Assembly (NCBI GenBank): GCA_028692765.1
Contig: JAQUWT010000001.1
Location: forward strand, 15,695 to 79,694
Source: Patescibacteria group bacterium
GTDB taxonomy: Bacteria; Patescibacteriota; Patescibacteriia; Patescibacteriales; UBA12465
Reading direction: 5' to 3'
Length of the DNA stretch: 64,000 nt
Positions 11,941-20,403 of this stretch are shown one piece after another. The position numbers were made by a program, and so were the translations under genes. How positions within the stretch are numbered: position 1 is the stretch's first letter; every line of letters begins with the position of its first letter. The notes below the pieces were generated by a model. That model ran no database searches and had not been told where the DNA came from. It saw nothing but the letters and a program-made list of their open reading frames with translations.

Positions 11941-12081
11941 ATGAGTGATAGAGTGGATAAAACTTATTTTTGCCGGACTTGCGGCAATGAGGTCAAGTTC
12001 GTTAAAGACGGCGGCGGCCAGTTGATTTGTTGCGGCCACCCGATGGAAATTAGGAAGCCGGGCTTTGACGGGGAAGAATAG
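11941..12081 (+). CDS. Desulforedoxin-type small iron protein (46 aa); absent from the ORF track
   Basis: Translation MSDRVDKTYFCRTCGNEVKFVKDGGGQLICCGHPMEIRKPGFDGEE carries the desulforedoxin signature CxxCGN...CCG. It sits directly downstream of rubrerythrin. Confidence 0.7.
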   Translation: MSDRVDKTYFCRTCGNEVKFVKDGGGQLICCGHPMEIRKPGFDGEE

Positions 12082-12283: not shown

Positions 12284-12354
12284 GCGGGATTGGTGTAGTG
12301 GTAACATGCGACTCTCCAAAAGTTGAGACGGGGGTTCGATTCCCTCATCCCGTG
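12284..12354 (+). tRNA. tRNA-Trp (anticodon CCA), CCA not encoded
   Basis: Acceptor GCGGGAT/ATCCCGT, anticodon stem CGACT/AGTTG with loop CTCCAAA, T-arm GGGGGTTCGATTCCCTC. Preceded by a promoter-like TTGTAA-16-TATAAT near 12150-12185. Confidence 0.8.
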
Positions 12355-12357
12355 CGT
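12343..12357 (+). repeat. attL-like copy of a 15-nt direct repeat (cctcatcccgtgcgt) covering the last 12 nt of tRNA-Trp plus 3 nt
   Basis: Identical 15-mer found again at 20389-20403. Confidence 0.7.
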
Positions 12358-12542
12358 GGACATTTCTGTGTAAAATGACCCGAAAACCGAGCATTTTTGA
12401 GTTCTAAACCCACAAAGGTGCTAGTCACCTTGGTGGGAATCGGAACAGCACAGAAAGCAATATTCTAGCAAAAGCACCTCGAAGGGGGTGTTTTTGCTAT
12501 GGGAACGGAGATTAAAATATGGTATTATAATATTGTAATATT

Positions 12543-13325
12543 ATGCCAAATTTTAATGATTTAAATTTAGAAAACTGGAAAGATTCTGATATCTGGACAG
12601 ATAGCCTTTGGATTATTCAGGAACGTGATAAATCGGGGAAACACGATGGTTTTTATCATGGAAATTTTGTGCCACAGATTCCTCGTCAACTTATAAAAAG
12701 ATATACCAAAGAGGGGGATGTCGTTTTTGATCCATTTTTAGGAAGTGGCACAACTGCTTATGAATGCGAAACTCTAAAAAGACATTTTATTGGGATTGAA
12801 ATACAGCCTAGTTTAGTAAGGCACGTTCAAACAAAGCTGGACAGTAAGAAAAATTTTTTTGAGATCTTGGCGGCTGATAGTACTGAGGAAAAAACATTTA
12901 TTAAGGTTAGTGAATCGCTAAAAAAGCATCGTCGCACTAAAGTCCAATTGGCAATACTGCACCCGCCATATGCCAACATAATTAAATTTAGCGATAATAA
13001 GAAAGATTTATCAAATGCCAAGGATTTAAGGCAGTTTCTTGACGAATTTTCAAGTGTAGTTAAAAATACTTTAACCATCCTAGAAAAGGGAAGGTATATG
13101 GCTATTGTTATGGGTGATAAATATGAACAGGGTAAGTGGATTCCTTTAGGATTTTATTGTATGAATGAAGCTTATAAGCTTGGATTAACTTTAAAGAGTG
13201 TTATAGTTAAGAATATGGAAGGCAACAGAGCAAAGCAGAATAAAGAGGGTATTTGGCGTTATAGAGCCCTGGCAAGTGATTATTATATTTTTAAACACGA
13301 ATATATATTAATTTTCAAATATTAG
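12543..13325 (+). CDS. DNA methyltransferase (N6-adenine/N4-cytosine amino-MTase), permuted motif order
   Basis: HGNFVPQIPRQLIKRYTKEGDVVFDPFLGSGTT matches the beta-class HPAxFP...DPFxGSGTT SAM-binding block, but here it is N-terminal. The PPY-type motif (LAILHPPYANI) lies downstream. AT-rich. Confidence 0.7.
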   Translation: MPNFNDLNLENWKDSDIWTDSLWIIQERDKSGKHDGFYHGNFVPQIPRQLIKRYTKEGDVVFDPFLGSGTTAYECETLKRHFIGIEIQPSLVRHVQTKLDSKKNFFEILAADSTEEKTFIKVSESLKKHRRTKVQLAILHPPYANIIKFSDNKKDLSNAKDLRQFLDEFSSVVKNTLTILEKGRYMAIVMGDKYEQGKWIPLGFYCMNEAYKLGLTLKSVIVKNMEGNRAKQNKEGIWRYRALASDYYIFKHEYILIFKY

Positions 13326-13326
13326 T

Positions 13327-14007
13327 ATGACAAATAATGAATTATTTCTAGAACTTGCGAAACCAAACAAAGACGGAGTAAGTCGTTGGGTTCCAGTTTC
13401 AGAATTTATTGGTAAATATAAAAAACTTCAGCTCGGAAATGGTGGAAGTTGGTGTCGAGCTAGCTCGAGTTTGGCGAAGAAATATATCGTTGAATTTGAT
13501 AAAAGCAAAACGGCCGGAAATTCAATCGATAGAGTTCGCTTAATTGGTTTTAATAAAAAAAAGATATTAAACCAAAATATTAGAAAGGATATAAAAGATT
13601 TTTATAAAGTGCAAAATTGTGTAATGCTTGGGGTTAATGGTAGCTCTGAGAATACAAAAATTGAAATTGATCATAAAGACGGTAGAAAAGAAGATCATAG
13701 ACTTTCAAATTTATCAGAACAACAAATCACTGATTTTCAGCCACTTTCAAAAGCGGCAAATGATATTAAAAGACAGATTTGTAAAAGATGTAAGGAAACC
13801 AATAAGCGTTGGAATGCTAAAAACATCAAGGGGAATCCATTTGATTTTTACGCAGGAGACGAAAATTATTCTGAAGAATTAGGATGCAAAGGTTGTTACC
13901 AGTATGATCCGGTGGAGTATAGGAAAGTTGTGGTTAGAAAGGTTGGCGAACTATCAGCCAGGGAAGCAGTTGATAAAGTTTTTAAAAAATTATATCCAGA
14001 AGGATAA
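13327..14007 (+). CDS. HNH-family endonuclease, putative cognate restriction enzyme
   Basis: EIDHKDGRKEDHRLSNL...ICKRCKETNKRWN matches the HNH pattern D-H...N...N-L...C-x2-C...N. One-nt gap after the MTase stop, so translationally coupled. Confidence 0.5.
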   Translation: MTNNELFLELAKPNKDGVSRWVPVSEFIGKYKKLQLGNGGSWCRASSSLAKKYIVEFDKSKTAGNSIDRVRLIGFNKKKILNQNIRKDIKDFYKVQNCVMLGVNGSSENTKIEIDHKDGRKEDHRLSNLSEQQITDFQPLSKAANDIKRQICKRCKETNKRWNAKNIKGNPFDFYAGDENYSEELGCKGCYQYDPVEYRKVVVRKVGELSAREAVDKVFKKLYPEG

Positions 14008-14016
14008 TGATAAAGT

Positions 14017-15699
14017 ATGAATAACTCTCCTCAAAAATCTGCAATAAATTCTCAAATTAACGATTTGATTAGTTTGAAATATTTAGGTTTAAATAAAGGA
14101 TTGCAAAGAGGTGCGGCATTTAACGAATTATCTGCCTCAATAATATGCGAGTCTGATATTCAGTCTGAAGACATTGTGGATGGTGATGATGACAATGGTC
14201 TCGATGTTGTTTTTATAAACTCTAATGACCAGGGAATTTTTATAAACATATTAAATTGTAAATCATCAGAAACTGAAAAATTTTCCGAGGTTGAGTTGGG
14301 TAAAATTAAAAATGGTTTATTTTATACATTTGAGGCTGATAAAAAAAAATATAAAAAACTAGAAAATCAAAACCTTTTAGCAAAAATAGAAGAAATAAGA
14401 GAAGACAAAGAAAATATCGTGGAGGTTAACTGTTTTTATTGTGCTTTTAGCGGTGATAATAATAAAGATAAAAAAATAAAAAGAGAAGTGGAGGAAATTC
14501 AAAATTATTTTAGCGAATATTTTAAAACAGTTTATCCAAATGCAAAATTTAATTTAAGTTTAATAAATGCAGAAGATTTATTCTACATAGATGCTCAGAG
14601 AAAACAGAGCCTTAGAAATGAAAAAATTTCTATACCGTATTATGGTGATAAAGTTATTTCAAATGAAGTAGAAACAGAAAAAATTGATGGAAGATTAGCA
14701 ACAGTAAGAGGAGAGGAAATTGCAAAGTTGGTTGAAAAATACGGAGAGTCTTTATTTGAAAAAAATGTTAGAGGTTGGATGAGCTTCAGAAAATATAATA
14801 AAGATATTTTATATTCCTGTTCCTCTGATAATGAATCGGAGCTTTTTTGGTTTTTAAATAATGGATTAACTATAGTATGTGATAAATGTGTTCCAGAGCC
14901 AGATAAGAAAATTTTAAAGTTAACAGCACCACAAATAATCAACGGACAACAAACCGCCAGAGTTTTAGAAAAAGCTTATAAGGATGGTATTTTAAAAGAA
15001 AATGTTAAAGTTTTATTAAAAATTTATGTAACTACTGCTCCTGATATAATAATTAAAGTTGCGAAAGCGACAAATAGCCAGCTTGTAGTCAAATCTCGCG
15101 ACTTAGTTTCTAATAATACTGAACAACTAGCTATTCAAAATGAATTTATAAGAAATAAATATGGTTATGAGAGACAGCGTGGTGAAAAAAAATCTAAGAC
15201 TGCTGACATAAAAGAAAATTTTAATAATTTTTTTGTAGCTCAATCAGTTCTATCTACTTTATTTGGGCAACCAAGCTTTGCAAAGAAAAAACAGGAGGAT
15301 AAGATTTTTGGAGAACCAAATTATTCCAAGATATTTAGAAATAATTCTGTGGATGAAATATTGACGGTTACTTTGTTGTGTAATTTCTGTTTAGGTGAAG
15401 GGCTTAAGCTGGAAAGAAAAAATATATCTGATCAAATAAAGTATTTTGCCTTTTTTCATATTGCCAGAATAATATGGTTTAATCTAAAAAATAAGGAAAA
15501 AATGAAAAATGATGAAATAATATCAATTATTCAAAATCATAAAAACAAGAAAAAATTAAATAATATATACACTAAAGCTTCTAATATATTATTAGGTGTA
15601 TATAAAAAATATAATAAGAAAGAAAAAATTATAAGTATTGGGCATTTGTTTTCTAGGTTGGAAGTTGATAAAGATATAAATAAATTATTATTTAAATGA
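14017..15699 (+). CDS. Large (560 aa) AIPR-like abortive-infection/defence protein
   Basis: Central IINGQQT motif, as I recall from AIPR proteins, which are often embedded in R-M operons; it is also distantly like the DGQQR motif of ParB/DUF262. K/N-rich, about 28% GC. Assignment is from memory only. Confidence 0.4.
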   Translation: MNNSPQKSAINSQINDLISLKYLGLNKGLQRGAAFNELSASIICESDIQSEDIVDGDDDNGLDVVFINSNDQGIFINILNCKSSETEKFSEVELGKIKNGLFYTFEADKKKYKKLENQNLLAKIEEIREDKENIVEVNCFYCAFSGDNNKDKKIKREVEEIQNYFSEYFKTVYPNAKFNLSLINAEDLFYIDAQRKQSLRNEKISIPYYGDKVISNEVETEKIDGRLATVRGEEIAKLVEKYGESLFEKNVRGWMSFRKYNKDILYSCSSDNESELFWFLNNGLTIVCDKCVPEPDKKILKLTAPQIINGQQTARVLEKAYKDGILKENVKVLLKIYVTTAPDIIIKVAKATNSQLVVKSRDLVSNNTEQLAIQNEFIRNKYGYERQRGEKKSKTADIKENFNNFFVAQSVLSTLFGQPSFAKKKQEDKIFGEPNYSKIFRNNSVDEILTVTLLCNFCLGEGLKLERKNISDQIKYFAFFHIARIIWFNLKNKEKMKNDEIISIIQNHKNKKKLNNIYTKASNILLGVYKKYNKKEKIISIGHLFSRLEVDKDINKLLFK

Positions 15700-16757
15700 A
15701 TTACATAGGAAGTAAATTATCATTATTGGAGTTTTTAGAGGAATCAATTAATAAAGTAGTTAAAAAAGACTGCAATGTTTTTTGTGATCTTTTTGCTGGA
15801 ACGGGGGCGGTCGGGTCATATTTTAAAAGAAAAGGATATAAAGTTATATCTAATGATATCCAATATTATAGCTATGTTTTAAATAGACACTATATTAAAA
15901 ATCATCAACCACTTGAATTTAAAAAATTATTTGATGTTGTTAATGGCTTAGAAAAATCATCCGTTTCTGATAGAAGTATTTTAGTCGTAGAGTATTTGAA
16001 TAATTTAAAAGGTCAAAAGGGATTTATTTTTAATAATTATTGTTTGGGTGGAACTAAAAATAAAGCAGAACAAAGAATGTATTTTTCTGATGAAAATGGG
16101 GCTAAATGTGATGCAATTAGAAAAAAAATAGAGGAATGGAATAGTGCTAGTTTAATTAATGGAAATGAATATTACTTTTTGTTAGCCAGTTTAGTTGAGT
16201 CAATAGATAAATATGCAAATACAGCTTCAGTTTATGGAGCATTTCTTAAGCAACTAAAGAAATCAGCTCAAAAATTAATGGTGCTTCAACCGGCGGAGTT
16301 AATTATTAATGAACAAGACCATGAGGTATACAATGAAGATATTAATTCTGTTATCGGAAAAATAAAGGGTGATATTCTTTACTTAGATCCGCCGTATAAT
16401 CAAAGGCAGTATGCAACCAACTATCATGTATTAGAGACTATAGCCAAATATGACAAGCCCAAAGTGCATGGCAAAACTGGGCTAAGAGATTATTCTAAAC
16501 AAAAATCCTTATATTGTTCAAGAAATCAAGTTAAAAAATCATTTAAAGATTTGATTGATAACGCGAAAGTTAAATATATATTTTTAAGCTATAATAACGA
16601 GGGGCTGATGAGCGCTGATGATATTAAAGAAATTATGGGCGCGCGCGGTAAGTATGGTGTTTTCACGAAAGAATATTCTAGATTTAAAGCTGACAAGAAT
16701 AGAGAATATAAGGCTGAAAAAACCGTTGAATATTTACATTATGTAGTATGCCGTTAA
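15696..16757 (+). CDS. Dam-like (MT-A70/D12 alpha-class) N6-adenine DNA methyltransferase
   Basis: MNYIGSKLSLL (Dam/MboI-type N-terminus), motif I DLFAGTGAV, motif IV LYLDPPY. ATGA overlap with the upstream gene. Confidence 0.85.
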   Translation: MNYIGSKLSLLEFLEESINKVVKKDCNVFCDLFAGTGAVGSYFKRKGYKVISNDIQYYSYVLNRHYIKNHQPLEFKKLFDVVNGLEKSSVSDRSILVVEYLNNLKGQKGFIFNNYCLGGTKNKAEQRMYFSDENGAKCDAIRKKIEEWNSASLINGNEYYFLLASLVESIDKYANTASVYGAFLKQLKKSAQKLMVLQPAELIINEQDHEVYNEDINSVIGKIKGDILYLDPPYNQRQYATNYHVLETIAKYDKPKVHGKTGLRDYSKQKSLYCSRNQVKKSFKDLIDNAKVKYIFLSYNNEGLMSADDIKEIMGARGKYGVFTKEYSRFKADKNREYKAEKTVEYLHYVVCR

Positions 16758-18469
16758 TAAATAAAATTTCAATAAAAAATTTTAAATGTTTTAGAAATAA
16801 AATTGATATTCCATTAAATCAAGGGAGTTATTTAATTGGTGCTAATAACGCAGGAAAAACAGCCGTACTTAATGCTATTAATTTCTTTTTTGATTCTTCT
16901 CTTTTTTTTGATGAGTCATTTTTAAACAGGACAAACTATTTGGCAAAAAAATCAGGATATAATAAGTCGGAAATTACTCTTAGTTTCGATTTAAGTTATA
17001 TATCTAATAGTTCACTTAAAAATAAGTTAGTAAAATTTTTTTCTTCCGAAATGGCAACAATTAAGAAGGTTATAATATTTTCTCCAGATTCTGGCAGTAT
17101 TAACTTGAGTTATGATATAAAGGGTAATAATTATACTTATGATGATTTAAATGAAAATGTTAAAAAAATGATTAGTAGTGTAAAGATTGTATATATACAC
17201 CCGCAAGAAGGTCGTGAATTGTTATTGAATGCTCAAAATAAACTACGTACGAGATTATTAGCAAATTGGGGGAGAAATGCTAAGCTTTCTCATAGTATCA
17301 AGGATCTGCAAGATAAATGGAGTGTTTTAAGAAAACAGGCCAGAGAATATCTTTCTGGATCTTTGTCAAATAGTCTACAAAATATGTGGCCAGGTGGATC
17401 TGCTTATATAGATTTACCAAAAGAAATTTCGGATATTGTGGCTATATCCGATATCACTTTTAAAGGTAATATTTCTTTGCCAGATATTAATTTAACAGCG
17501 CAAGGAACTGGCGCACAAACTACCATTTTATATTTAACTCATTATTTATTAGATAGCGATCGATCTTTACACAGAGGCGAATATCATCCAATTTGGCTAT
17601 TAGAGGAGCCGGAGTCATTTCTTCATGCTGATTTAATAGCAAAATTTGCATCTCAGCTAAATTCAGAATCTTGGATGAGCAATATACAGGTTGTGGTTTC
17701 TACGCATTCACCTATTTTACTTTCAGTAAGTAGAATGGGTAAGAATTTAGTTTCTTGGAGTTTGCTTGATAATTACGAACCACAGATATCAAAGAATGTT
17801 ATAGATTGGAGCCATGAAGAAATTTTTAATGTTGGCAAAAAAATGGGCGATCCAAATTTCTCAGTATATTTTTCCGTTTCACAAAATGGTCCTATTGTAT
17901 TTTTAGAAGACAAAAAAGATATTACAATAGATAGATTTAAAAAGGCCGGAATTTCCATTACTAGTGGGTTGGGCGGTGTTTCTGAGGTTGTTAGACATAT
18001 AAGTGTATTGATCTCAAGTCCTAGATTGTCGTCTAGCAAAATATACTATATAGTTGATGGCGATCGCGGCTTTAATAATTTTGTTAATTTTATTGATGGC
18101 GACCCCGTTAAGTCTATTGGGGGATTAAATAAGTTTCAATTAAAAGATTTAAATGATGTATATTTATTATCACTTCCAAAAAATAGAGCTATAGAAGAAA
18201 TGTTTGATGAGTATGAACCCTATTTGTTATCTTTAATTAATCAAATATGGGATCCGCATACCTGGAATTTTAGGCAAAAAATTCCTAGTGTTTTGTCAAC
18301 TATCTGCGCCTCTTCTAAGAAAAAAAATATAAATTCACTTGGCAGTGCTCAAAATGCTATAAAAAATTCTGATGATGTTAAATATATGTTTTGGAAAAAA
18401 GTTGAAAAAGAGAATTTAAGTTTTAGTAAAGTATTTATTTCTAATTTGGTAGCTATTCTAAATGATTAA
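16748..18469 (+). CDS. OLD/GajA-like nuclease: ABC-type ATPase fused to a C-terminal Toprim-like domain
   Basis: N-terminal ISIKNFKCF...GANNAGKT (Walker A), WLLEEPESFLHADL (Walker B/D-loop), STHSP (H-loop). C-terminal VFLEDKKD...YYIVDGDRGF fits the Toprim E...DxD pattern. Overlaps the MTase by 10 nt. Confidence 0.6.
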   Translation: MPLINKISIKNFKCFRNKIDIPLNQGSYLIGANNAGKTAVLNAINFFFDSSLFFDESFLNRTNYLAKKSGYNKSEITLSFDLSYISNSSLKNKLVKFFSSEMATIKKVIIFSPDSGSINLSYDIKGNNYTYDDLNENVKKMISSVKIVYIHPQEGRELLLNAQNKLRTRLLANWGRNAKLSHSIKDLQDKWSVLRKQAREYLSGSLSNSLQNMWPGGSAYIDLPKEISDIVAISDITFKGNISLPDINLTAQGTGAQTTILYLTHYLLDSDRSLHRGEYHPIWLLEEPESFLHADLIAKFASQLNSESWMSNIQVVVSTHSPILLSVSRMGKNLVSWSLLDNYEPQISKNVIDWSHEEIFNVGKKMGDPNFSVYFSVSQNGPIVFLEDKKDITIDRFKKAGISITSGLGGVSEVVRHISVLISSPRLSSSKIYYIVDGDRGFNNFVNFIDGDPVKSIGGLNKFQLKDLNDVYLLSLPKNRAIEEMFDEYEPYLLSLINQIWDPHTWNFRQKIPSVLSTICASSKKKNINSLGSAQNAIKNSDDVKYMFWKKVEKENLSFSKVFISNLVAILND

Positions 18470-18549
18470 TTTTATAGTTTAATATTCAGGTACAAAAATA
18501 TCAGTCCGCGCCTTCGGGCTGATATTTATTTTAACTTTATTATCTTTTT

Positions 18550-19098
18550 TTATTCCTCAAACACCAGGCTATCGATAATCGTCGGCATTGATGCCAAGGG
18601 AGCGGTAATCACGAATATATTGCTATCTTTGGAAAAAATGATGATTTGCGGGTCGGGAAAGTCTTCGCCATTGTTTGCGACTTCATGCGCAGAGATGCCG
18701 CTTTGCCCGGCAATGTCGATGTTTTCGTCTTTAAGATATCGACTGGATTTTAATTTTTTATTTTCTGTTTCCAGCCAAGATTCCGCATCGGGAAATTGTT
18801 GTTTGGCAAAAACTTGGATGCTTATACCCGGTCCACCTCCTTGAGAAAAGACAACGCCGTTATTTTCCAAGGAAATGACATCCAGATTGCCGGGGTAGGA
18901 TAATCTATATTTAAGAGGCCTATTAGTATAGGTTTTTAATTTTATTTCTCCCACGTTCTCCGCTTGGCTTTTTGTTTGATTATAGTAAGCAATTTGCCGG
19001 CATTTGCTTTGGATAAGGAGAATTGCGGTCATTAGAGCCAGTACGATGATGGCGCTGCCGGCAACGATTATTTTTTGATTGTAAGTATTTTTAATCAT
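18550..19098 (-). CDS. Hypothetical membrane-anchored protein (182 aa)
   Basis: N-terminal TM helix IIVAGSAIIVLALMTAILLI. No family recognised. Confidence 0.5.
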   Translation of the reverse strand: MIKNTYNQKIIVAGSAIIVLALMTAILLIQSKCRQIAYYNQTKSQAENVGEIKLKTYTNRPLKYRLSYPGNLDVISLENNGVVFSQGGGPGISIQVFAKQQFPDAESWLETENKKLKSSRYLKDENIDIAGQSGISAHEVANNGEDFPDPQIIIFSKDSNIFVITAPLASMPTIIDSLVFEE

Positions 19099-19343
19099 AT
19101 AAATTAAGATGCTTTTATATTATAGCATAATGGCATAACATTTGTTTAAAAAATAAATAGAATTAATTAACGATATATAATCGTATAAAGCGGCGGGGAA
19201 GCTCCAGAGATTTGCCGACAGGCAAATGTCGCGGCGGATGAGCCGATTAGTGTCCTAATTTTAGAGTAATTTTTTATATATTCTCAAACAGGATTAGAAT
19301 ATAAGCGCTTATTTTAGTATAATGATGATATAGAGCTACATTT

Positions 19344-20339
19344 ATGAAAATAAAAGACATCAATCAAGGCGTCAGAAAAGCGGCCGCCGAAACCGGCTTT
19401 AAAATCGGTAAGGAAATTTATCGGGGAACTTATTACACGGAAGGCAATTTGAGAAATATTATTTATGACGGTTTTTATAAAAACAAGCCGGCCGTATTGA
19501 AATTTTATGATGATCCCCGAATTACGGATGAAGCGGCCTCGCTGAAAGAGTTTTTAAAAAATAATAAAAGCGTAATTTTGACGGCGCCGAAACTATACAG
19601 AAGCAAAGTTCTTTCGGCTCATTCGGGGTGGATGATTGTCGAGAAAATACCCGACAGTTATCATAAATATGAAATTCCATTGGATAAGATTGAGCGGGAA
19701 GAATTTTTGAAAATATTTTTGGAATACAGAAAGAATTTTTCTCTTAAGCCGGGCAGGAAATTATTTTTAACCGAAAAGCTTTCGTCTGATAATTTTTATA
19801 TTTTTAGAATAAGCAGGTGGTTGGAATTGGCGCAGAATAAAGAGGCCGACAGGCTGATGAACGGCAAGCGCAATCTTCTCGATGAAGATTTTTTAAAGAT
19901 GCTTGCGCCGGCTTTATCGAAGATAAGAGAGGAATGCAAAAACATCAAGATGATTTGGTGCCACGGCCACTTCAAGCCGTCTGAAATTTTTACCGACCGG
20001 GCAAGGACTAAGTATTATTTGACCGATTTTGCGCACACCGCCATGTTTCCCGAAGGATATGAACTCGCCTTTATGATCTGGTCCGATTATTTAATGGCGG
20101 ATGATAAGTGGAAGATGCCGTATCGGCACTGGAAGAAGGGCCTTGATGCTTGGATTATGGATGTCGAAAAAATAGCCAAGGAATTGGGATTTAATAATTA
20201 TAAAAGGTTAATTAGAGTTAGCTTGATAGAGAGAGTCTTGGGGACGATATTGGCTGACATTACCGCCTCGGATAGGCTGGAGCAAGAAAAAGAAAGGGGA
20301 ATCAGCCTAATGACGAGGCTTTTAAAAGATTTATTGTAG
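19344..20339 (+). CDS. Phosphotransferase (APH/kinase-like fold) family protein, divergent catalytic loop
   Basis: HGHFKPSEIF aligns with the HGDxxxxN catalytic loop, and YLTDFAHT aligns with the DFG/DFE metal-binding motif. D to H and N to E substitutions suggest altered or lost kinase activity. Confidence 0.4.
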   Translation: MKIKDINQGVRKAAAETGFKIGKEIYRGTYYTEGNLRNIIYDGFYKNKPAVLKFYDDPRITDEAASLKEFLKNNKSVILTAPKLYRSKVLSAHSGWMIVEKIPDSYHKYEIPLDKIEREEFLKIFLEYRKNFSLKPGRKLFLTEKLSSDNFYIFRISRWLELAQNKEADRLMNGKRNLLDEDFLKMLAPALSKIREECKNIKMIWCHGHFKPSEIFTDRARTKYYLTDFAHTAMFPEGYELAFMIWSDYLMADDKWKMPYRHWKKGLDAWIMDVEKIAKELGFNNYKRLIRVSLIERVLGTILADITASDRLEQEKERGISLMTRLLKDLL

Positions 20340-20388
20340 CTGGGCGATTATAATATTATTTTATCATATAAATAATGAGGCGAAACTT

Positions 20389-20403
20389 CCTCATCCCGTG
20401 CGT
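20389..20403 (+). repeat. attR-like copy of the tRNA-Trp 3'-end direct repeat (cctcatcccgtgcgt)
   Basis: Exact 15/15 match to 12343-12357, or 16/17 with one flanking mismatch. Immediately followed by a terminator. Confidence 0.7.

Follow-up and report, generated by a model that had tools for sequence, protein, structure and literature searches.

In this study, we examined a gene for a 560-residue protein of the AIPR/AbiU family that lies inside a restriction-modification (R-M) operon of a Patescibacteria group bacterium (assembly GCA_028692765.1, contig JAQUWT010000001.1). Positions refer to the window, the whole stretch of 64,000 nucleotides (nt) that was analysed. Five genes follow one another closely on its forward strand: a first DNA methyltransferase (M1), an IceA/R.NlaIII-like restriction endonuclease (R), the AIPR gene, a second methyltransferase (M2) and an ATPase (Table 1). 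The AIPR gene is inserted between R and M2 with the precision of a whole open reading frame (ORF), into a Type II cassette that recurs without it in many phyla, and we relate this position to what the protein may do. An earlier reading of the bare sequence, here called the first-pass annotation, had proposed an abortive-infection protein of the AIPR type, marked by NGQQT and encoded inside an R-M operon; on this main call Pfam, PADLOC and motif invariance now agree.

An AIPR/AbiU-family protein and its domains

The frame runs from ATG to stop over the expected 560 amino acids (aa). PF10592 (AIPR), the hidden Markov model (HMM) that the first-pass annotation had put forward as a check, is the single Pfam match of the protein (111.4 bits, cutoff 25; E = 8.7e-32), with residues 247-522 aligned to profile positions 1-297 of 308, and the same model matches 54 of 54 aligned homologs. 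The PADLOC AbiU model (PDLC02357) is matched at E = 9.1e-49 (165 bits; residues 48-538 on profile positions 39-520 of 537), and PHROG 1841 ('Abi alpha-like abortive infection') at E = 1e-51. A search of 5.8 billion proteins retrieved 504 homologs, with PF10592 present in all among the matches listed, and the identical protein sequence bears the NCBI name 'AIPR family protein [Patescibacteria group bacterium]'. On the AbiU model the window protein scores far more weakly than plasmid AbiU proteins, which reach 590-660 bits (E = 1e-177 to 1e-199). Because a 589-aa plasmid protein of Lactococcus cremoris (AbiU model E = 1e-177), only 20% identical to the window protein, keeps all of the core motifs, the latter clearly belongs to the family, though as a distant member. 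We regard AIPR/AbiU membership as a near certainty; the assignment itself is routine, the public annotation being AIPR already.

The closest named counterpart is AbiU1 (AbiUi) of Lactococcus lactis, the single-gene 'AbiU' of PADLOC and DefenseFinder. The two proteins share the Pfam family, a near end-to-end match to the PADLOC model, an N-terminal D-x-G-x-D...Q/N-x-K signature and the core motifs, at 589 aa for the AbiU1-type protein and 560 aa for ours. They differ in sequence (about 20% identity, 165 against 590-660 bits) and in setting, as AbiU1 lies on a lactococcal plasmid beside AbiU2 whereas the window gene lies in a Type II R-M operon on a Patescibacteria chromosome. With MzaE only the central AIPR core is held in common (residues 222-373): the PADLOC MzaE match is weak and confined to the core, and the NCBIfam equivalog NF041935 scores 36.6 bits against a cutoff of 1050. 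No Mza partner genes were found in the locus by Pfam scan, and a literature search for Mza/MzaE returned unrelated papers only.

The coding sequence has a G+C content (GC) of 26.9% (18.7% at third codon positions, GC3), compared with 43.7% for the whole window, and the protein consists to 40.5% of lysine (12.7%), asparagine (9.6%), glutamate (8.4%) and isoleucine (9.8%). The Lys/Asn/Glu richness described in the first-pass annotation is therefore real, but its term 'low-complexity' does not apply: the Shannon entropy of 3.97 bits is close to the 4.03-4.15 bits of neighbouring genes, entropy profiling found no 20-aa window below 2.6 bits, and the AlphaFold2 model, built on the 54-sequence alignment, is confidently globular (mean predicted local distance difference test score, pLDDT, 88.3; predicted template-modelling score, pTM, 0.80). 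The protein is compositionally biased, not low-complexity. Nor is the very AT-rich donor once suggested for it needed, since AIPR genes lie 3-16 GC points under their host flanks in all ten loci compared, which makes low GC a trait of the AIPR gene lineage. The ratio of nonsynonymous to synonymous substitution (dN/dS) is 0.10 against a relative of 93% identity and 0.12 against one of 80%; in the latter genome pair IceA and M2 give 0.076 and 0.059, and dN of AIPR is about 2.3-2.7 times that of its cassette neighbours. The gene is thus constrained, yet evolves faster than the remainder of the cassette.

The NGQQT motif, placed near residue 310 in the first-pass annotation, was located at residues 309-313. 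Across the 54 homologs, which extend down to 22% identity, Q306, N309, G310, Q312 and T313 are invariant, while residue 311 is Q in 28, C in 22, G in three and R in one; because this position varies, with L and A also recorded, the hallmark is better written NGxQT. Conservation of the motif, proposed earlier as a check, goes far beyond chance and extends beyond this set, as curated AIPR/AbiU proteins from plasmids, 20-24% identical, also keep N309, G310, Q312 and T313. When such plasmid proteins from Lactococcus, Klebsiella, Brucella and Staphylococcus were added to the alignment, the invariant positions were F247, N250, R252, N261, I264, F277, N281, N282, G283, T285, I307, N309, G310, Q312, T313, T352, N353, Q355, L363, P419 and A422. 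Around NGxQT they include a polar constellation of N-x-R, NNG-x-T and TNxQ, all present in the window protein. In the model, NGxQT spans the end of a strand (306-309) and the start of a helix (311-322). The family profile has no sequence relatives in the PDB at E <= 10.

The N-terminal part of the protein is likely, but not proven, to be a PD-(D/E)xK-type nuclease domain, as judged from sequence and model. In this region D63 is invariant among the 54 homologs, K82 is found in 50 of them and residue 80 is Q or N in 50. Plasmid AbiU proteins have the same D-x-G-x-D...Q-x-K pattern as the window protein, and this pattern is the signature of Mrr-type PD-(D/E)xK nucleases. The model places the signature on a beta-hairpin of strands 64-69 and 74-82 that follows a helix (27-44). 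Mrr_cat was matched weakly in two of the 54 family members (E about 0.002), and the match was not located in ten divergent members scanned one by one. A whole-chain Foldseek search against the PDB gave nothing at E < 0.1, the best match being the Hachiman nuclease HamA (E = 0.1, probability 0.66, 145 columns). In the literature, AbiU-1 has been grouped with the defence nucleases of the PD-(D/E)XK superfamily (PMC13099982), and an AlphaFold model of AbiU superimposes on the restriction endonuclease 1FOK over 146 residues (PMC13064643). A 402-aa AIPR protein on pOANT01 of Brucella anthropi (L097:4824-6032) is without the entire nuclease-type domain; its gene adjoins an IS3 transposase and looks truncated.

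The host cassette and the insertion point

To place the gene in its context, we used the five window proteins as tblastn queries against 80 loci with IceA relatives (65-96% identity, from many phyla and including Neisseria lactamica). In 74 of these loci M2 comes after IceA, in 69 M1 comes before it and in 63 both are present, with a gap of less than 60 nt between R and M2 in 57; an AIPR gene was found in none of the 80. There was no M1 match in N. lactamica, which has R-M2, or in eight other loci, among which L057 is ended by a contig edge. M1-R-M2 is hence a single recurrent Type II cassette, and the AIPR gene of the window an insertion at its R/M2 junction. The first-pass annotation had seen the gene as embedded between R-M modules; R-M genes do lie on both sides, but two separate modules are ruled out by the recurrence of the three genes as one cassette. 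We also considered whether M1 might be truncated, given an offset on its PADLOC model, and ruled this out, as M1 homologs measure 259-260 aa in essentially all cassettes.

With an ICEA endonuclease, a D12-class methylase and an N6_N4 methylase upstream, the window cassette is of the NlaIII type. Its IceA is 69% identical to the N. lactamica copy and, by sequence relationship, presumably CATG-specific. NlaIII-type cassettes usually have two adenine methylases of different class around the endonuclease, N6_N4 upstream and D12 downstream, an arrangement reminiscent of DpnII (DpnM + DpnA).

The insertion can be read to the nucleotide by comparison with the closest AIPR-free cassette, L009 (IceA 96%, M1 89% and M2 82% identical to the window). 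In L009, 9 nt separate the stop of IceA from ATGAATTAC, where M2 starts; in the window the same distance of 9 nt leads to ATGAATAAC, where AIPR starts, and ATGAATTAC, the M2 start, is in turn overlapped by the stop of AIPR (ATGA). Layout and junctions are identical in the relatives at 80% and 93% identity. AIPR genes in R-M operons have been described before (Iyer, Abhiman & Aravind 2008; Makarova et al. 2012/2013), with Pin25611FIII of P. intermedia as a published Type II example (PMC5608340). To these the window adds the exact host cassette and the nucleotide-level insertion point; our literature searches returned no published description of an AIPR insertion mapped to the nucleotide in a defined NlaIII-type cassette. 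The 3' ends of IceA (13971-13994) and AIPR (15666-15689) share a 24-nt stretch of 79% identity (VDKVFKKL and VDKDINKL), a possible recombination trace that we judged more probably to be chance in AT-rich DNA.

From each gene to the next, the five genes are spaced by 1, 9, -4 and -10 nt, and only the fifth is followed by a strong terminator-like hairpin, an organization that predicts a single M1-R-AIPR-M2-ATPase transcription unit; a promoter scan was uninformative (47 sites against 39 expected). The ATPase gene, the last of the unit, shares 10 nt with M2. None of the other cassettes has a counterpart of it, and its OLD-like product is probably a separate defence module. The last 240 residues of the ATPase match no family and contain YYIVDGDRG, possibly a degenerate Toprim DxD.

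Table 1 Features of the window and, where a locus handle (L) precedes the coordinates, of the compared loci
Feature	Position	Strand	Basis or remark
tRNA-Trp (CCA)	12284-12355	+	left edge of low-GC island
15-nt direct repeat CCTCATCCCGTGCGT, left copy, attL-like	12343-12357	.	covers 3' end of tRNA-Trp
M1, N6_N4-class DNA methyltransferase, 260 aa	12543-13325	+	Pfam N6_N4_Mtase E=2e-27; PADLOC MTase_II E=1e-96
R, IceA / R.NlaIII-like restriction endonuclease, 226 aa	13327-14007	+	Pfam ICEA E=7.8e-119
AIPR/AbiU-family ORF, 560 aa	14017-15699	+	ATG-to-stop frame, Pfam, PADLOC, PHROG, NCBI name, dN/dS
Likely N-terminal PD-(D/E)xK / Mrr-like nuclease-type domain, residues ~25-200	14089-14616	+	borders approximate, from model secondary structure
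Putative nuclease signature D55-G56; D63; N80-x-K82	D63 14203-14205; N80-x-K82 14254-14262	+	homolog alignment
AIPR Pfam domain, residues 247-522	14755-15582	+	Pfam envelope; N250-x-R252, N281-N-G-x-T285, N309-G-x-Q-T313, T352-N-x-Q355, R361/L363
NGQQT motif, residues 309-313	14941-14955	+	sequence, model, alignments
M2, D12-class (Dam/M.NlaIII-type) adenine methyltransferase, 353 aa	15696-16757	+	Pfam MethyltransfD12 E=2.6e-51; PADLOC MTase_II E=2e-116
AAA_15 / OLD- or GajA-like ABC ATPase, 573 aa	16748-18469	+	Pfam AAA_15 E=7.7e-22; PADLOC Old E=6e-28
Terminator-like hairpin	18496-18527	+	13-bp stem then T-rich tail, after fifth gene
15-nt direct repeat CCTCATCCCGTGCGT, right copy, attR-like	20389-20403	.	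exact repeat
~380-aa gene at R/M2 junction	L022:6647-7822; L047:6681-7811; L029, L033, L053, L067, L069, L070, L076, L087		split in two in L087
HTH_3/XRE gene upstream of AIPR	L001:7795-7977; L003:1780-1995; L005:7783-7998; L008:6734-6982; L089:5789-6004		
Gene after M2	L001:10756-13056; L005:10746-12575		

Relatives, junction occupants and the surrounding island

The window gene and nine relatives of at least 38% identity sit inside Type II cassettes. For these, the location in R-M operons that the first-pass annotation called characteristic of the family is upheld; not every more distant member shares it, and the association is typical of the family without strictly defining it. Around AIPR proteins at 38-68% identity, M1 and M2 are 69-83% identical to those of the window, and the restriction gene encodes a divergent Type II endonuclease of 222-224 aa with 27-29% identity to IceA (PADLOC REase_II E = 2e-34 in L001). 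A 60-82-aa HTH_3/XRE gene, named for its helix-turn-helix (HTH) domain, stands between this endonuclease and AIPR in the more distant cassettes. The window and its relatives at 80-93% have no HTH_3 gene, just the 9 nt from IceA to AIPR, and the HTH_3 protein may be an AIPR regulator that was lost in the window lineage. A different Type II cassette surrounds the AIPR gene of L007 (40% identity), in the order methylase, AIPR, methylase, 352-aa endonuclease. At 23-29% identity, two AIPR genes adjoin an HNH_2 nuclease without a methylase and one is solitary, and 92 plasmids carry family members in varied contexts. Since the contexts vary in this way, we see AIPR as a portable module, often but not always in R-M operons, in line with earlier comparative-genomic remarks (PMC2292703, PMC3506569, PMC3632139, PMC5608340).

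The pairs with an HNH_2 nuclease lie in a Mucilaginibacter genome (L092:5163-7698) and on a JGI metagenome contig (L093:6001-8523). In both, a distant AIPR gene is joined by a gene for a 257-aa HNH_2 protein (PADLOC HNH E = 1.6e-92 for the L092 copy) and no methylase, with the gene order reversed between them; such a pair may be a distinct two-gene AIPR system. The position after M2 is also exchanged among related cassettes, which have no gene there, a 609-aa AAA_15 ATPase unrelated to that of the window, or a 766-aa protein with HARE-HTH and DndB/DpdB (DGQHR) domains, and this suggests a variable accessory site downstream of M2. At the R/M2 junction itself, exactly where the window has AIPR, ten of the 80 IceA cassettes have a different gene of about 380 aa, whose product matches an EVE domain weakly at its N-terminus and, also weakly, a YhcG-type PD-(D/E)xK domain (PADLOC PDC-S02) at its C-terminus. 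By its domain matches, this protein would fit a modification-reading nuclease.

The R-M, AIPR and ATPase genes are held by an island of about 8 kb (12358-20388) with 32% GC, compared with 45% outside. The 15-nt direct repeat at its two ends, one copy of which covers the 3' end of the tRNA gene, looks like the att signature of a tRNA-integrated island; we estimate that chance alone would yield about 0.05 such repeats in the region. Pfam, NCBIfam, PADLOC and PHROG revealed no recognisable integrase in the island. Two of its ORFs, 19344-20339 (+, 331 aa) and 18550-19098 (-, 182 aa), have no convincing match in the same four collections, and the 331-aa ORF abuts the right repeat, the expected place for a recombinase. 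Outside the island, just past the rubrerythrin gene, a 46-aa ORF (11941-12081, +) has a CxxC...CC pattern (MSDRVDKTYFCRTCGNEV...CCGHPM) and by eye resembles a desulforedoxin.

A candidate second-line nuclease and its alternatives

To discern what the AIPR protein contributes to this locus, its domains, its position and the habits of its relatives have to be considered together. The reading that we favour, and consider more likely than not, is that of a self-contained second-line defence nuclease that is expressed and transferred together with the R-M system; for its mechanistic part, taken alone, we see roughly even chances. The N-terminal PD-(D/E)xK (Mrr/HamA-like) domain with D63 and N80-x-K82 would be the effector. 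The polar residues of the AIPR core (N-x-R, NNG-x-T, NGxQT and TNxQ) probably form a pocket for a ligand or nucleic acid, which would make the core a binding or sensing module, and a helical region is predicted to follow it at the C-terminus. The nuclease would be held inactive until infection, as AbiUi in Lactococcus. In the operon, AIPR uses the ribosome-binding context that M2 has where no AIPR is inserted, and M2 is now translationally coupled to the AIPR stop codon; AIPR itself would not rely on R-M methylation.

The autonomy of the protein is supported by its relatives in the other Type II cassette (L007), beside an HNH nuclease without methylase, as a solitary gene and on 92 plasmids. 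In addition, AbiUi alone confers modest phage resistance and delays phage transcription, according to the account of Dai 2001 given in PMC13064643. Retained function is supported by the presence of all family-invariant residues, by dN/dS of 0.10 and 0.12 and by a pLDDT of 88. Several points weigh against the favoured reading. The nuclease assignment consists of a short motif, weak HMM (E = 0.002) and structure (E = 0.1) matches and a literature homolog of only 20% identity, and the window protein has N at the middle catalytic position where Q is the commoner residue, so activity is not assured. No solved structure resembles the NGxQT core, either in the comparison of the family profile with the PDB or in Foldseek searches with the whole chain and the core. 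Lastly, the tight and conserved coupling to M2 could mean true functional dependence on R-M rather than hitch-hiking.

This last point leads to the main rival of the favoured reading, in which AIPR is a guard of R-M: coupled to the NlaIII-type enzymes, it would be freed as a suicide nuclease when phage anti-restriction disables R or M. The logic is that of PrrC in EcoprrI, likewise an accessory effector gene within an R-M operon (Type I there). PrrC, in which an ABC-type ATPase is joined to an anticodon nuclease of the HEPN type, belongs to a protein family unrelated to AIPR. A guard would explain why the gene lies inside the operon, with a stop that overlaps the start of M2 both in the window and in relatives as distant as 38% identity, and the reuse of the R/M2 junction by the other nuclease candidate (weak EVE and weak PD-(D/E)xK, 10 of 80) suggests selection for position. 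Moreover, the hypothesis of immunity-suicide coupling expressly cites the linkage of AbiU1/AIPR to R-M (PMC3506569). However, the gene overlap can be explained by compact operon packing, some family members have no R-M genes nearby, and AbiUi is effective alone in Lactococcus (PMC13064643); we therefore consider a guard unlikely, although worth keeping in view. About equally unlikely, in our judgment, is the broader notion that the R/M2 junction of NlaIII-type cassettes is a conserved docking site for different accessory nucleases, AIPR in the window lineage and the EVE-like protein in 10 of 80 others, that are translationally coupled to the methylase and work with R-M, for example as guards that respond to a block of restriction or methylation, and that the NGxQT core is a new kind of sensor domain. 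It is improbable that AIPR is instead a restriction-type subunit paired with M2, in the style of HTH(C-protein)-R-M, at a locus with two R-M systems. The direct succession of the 60-82-aa HTH_3 gene, AIPR and M2 in distant cassettes does mimic a C-R-M operon, and AIPR bears a restriction-endonuclease-like motif. Such a role is disfavoured because M2 is the normal partner of IceA, which it follows in 74 of 80 loci without AIPR, Neisseria lactamica included; further, the AIPR cassette of L007 already has its own endonuclease, many AIPR genes have no methylase nearby, and the window lineage is missing the HTH gene while the AIPR frame and its selective constraint are kept. Least probable of all, to a degree that we would give it little weight, is a decaying or selfish passenger gene without present function. 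It would suit the horizontal acquisition of the low-GC island, in which no integrase was recognised, and the loss of the HTH gene of relatives, but not an intact 560-aa frame with every family-invariant residue kept and dN/dS near 0.1 against two relatives.

A further alternative concerns mechanism and is compatible with the self-contained nuclease. The AIPR core could be a divergent ParB/DUF262-type nucleotide-binding domain, with NGxQT corresponding to DGQQR, and the protein a GmrSD/BrxU-like, Type IV-style nuclease regulated by nucleoside triphosphate (NTP), with a swapped nuclease domain; we hold this as a tentative possibility, on the doubtful side. It follows a published classification in which AbiU1/AIPR, COG1479 and DndB all belong to the ParB nuclease superfamily (Makarova et al. 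2013; PMC3632139), and the first-pass annotation, too, had noted a likeness to DGQQR. At the level of the motif this likeness stands: GmrSD/BrxU/DUF262 (DGQQR) and DndB (DGQHR) also have a five-residue motif at the junction of a strand end and a helix start, and a fused nuclease. Unlike in those families, the D and R of the motif are invariantly replaced by N and T in AIPR, and unlike in GmrSD, whose nuclease is a C-terminal DUF1524/HNH domain, the putative nuclease of AIPR is PD-(D/E)xK-like and N-terminal. The D and R of ParB/DUF262 motifs are taken as functionally important. Homology in the wider sense was not recovered by any of three approaches. The DUF262 profile (PF03235), the other HMM check suggested earlier, does not match the window protein at E <= 0.01, and DUF262, ParBc and DndB are absent from the best 25 of the 56 Pfam families that the 54 members match at E <= 1, while a genuine DUF262/GmrSD protein from L087 scores E = 5.7e-34 in the same search; GmrSD_C (C-terminal DUF1524, HNH-type) was likewise not matched in the window protein with Pfam. 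In hhalign, a 26-sequence DndB alignment gave a probability of 0.1% at full length and P = 0.19 when cut to the motif regions, the best path pairing NGxQT with DGQHR, TNxQ with INxxQ, FLNNGITI with FPNNIII and NVR with YQR. A 40-sequence DUF262 alignment gave a nominal P = 0.0016 centred on NGxQT/DGQQR (control DUF262 against DndB, P = 7e-5), with NxR on (Y/F)QR and FLNNGITI on FLGSIIL, both upstream of the motif. On calibration with a uniform column rule, the DUF262 score of 20.0 lies at the 95th percentile of 150 column shuffles, below the median of 21.7 for shuffles of 6-column blocks (reversed profile, 14.3). Since the score is no better than that of motif-preserving shuffled controls, the similarity to DUF262 is confined to the short motif, to which the nominal P is due, and by these comparisons a ParB-superfamily homology was not significant. 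Structure gave a similar picture: the proposed AlphaFold and Foldseek check yielded a confident model, and a separate model of residues 236-430 (pLDDT 81.5) reached E = 1.6 at best against the PDB. Among the core matches listed, PadC (6ryk_B), which is ParB-like, has the top template-modelling (TM) scores, yet these are 0.24/0.34 at E = 2.6.

The self-contained defence nuclease thus remains our preferred reading, and the locus offers a way to examine it further. AIPR/AbiU is a widespread defence family (504 homologs, 92 plasmids), and the cassette is a natural experiment in which the same M1-R-M2 genes occur empty, with AIPR, or with a second nuclease candidate in exactly the same place. This makes it easier to test whether AIPR is autonomous or depends on R-M, and which of nucleotides, DNA or a phage product, if any, the NGxQT pocket senses. 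In conclusion, our analysis provides a corrected operon architecture and a well-defined system for probing AIPR function, and adds a further case of layered defence in small Patescibacteria genomes.

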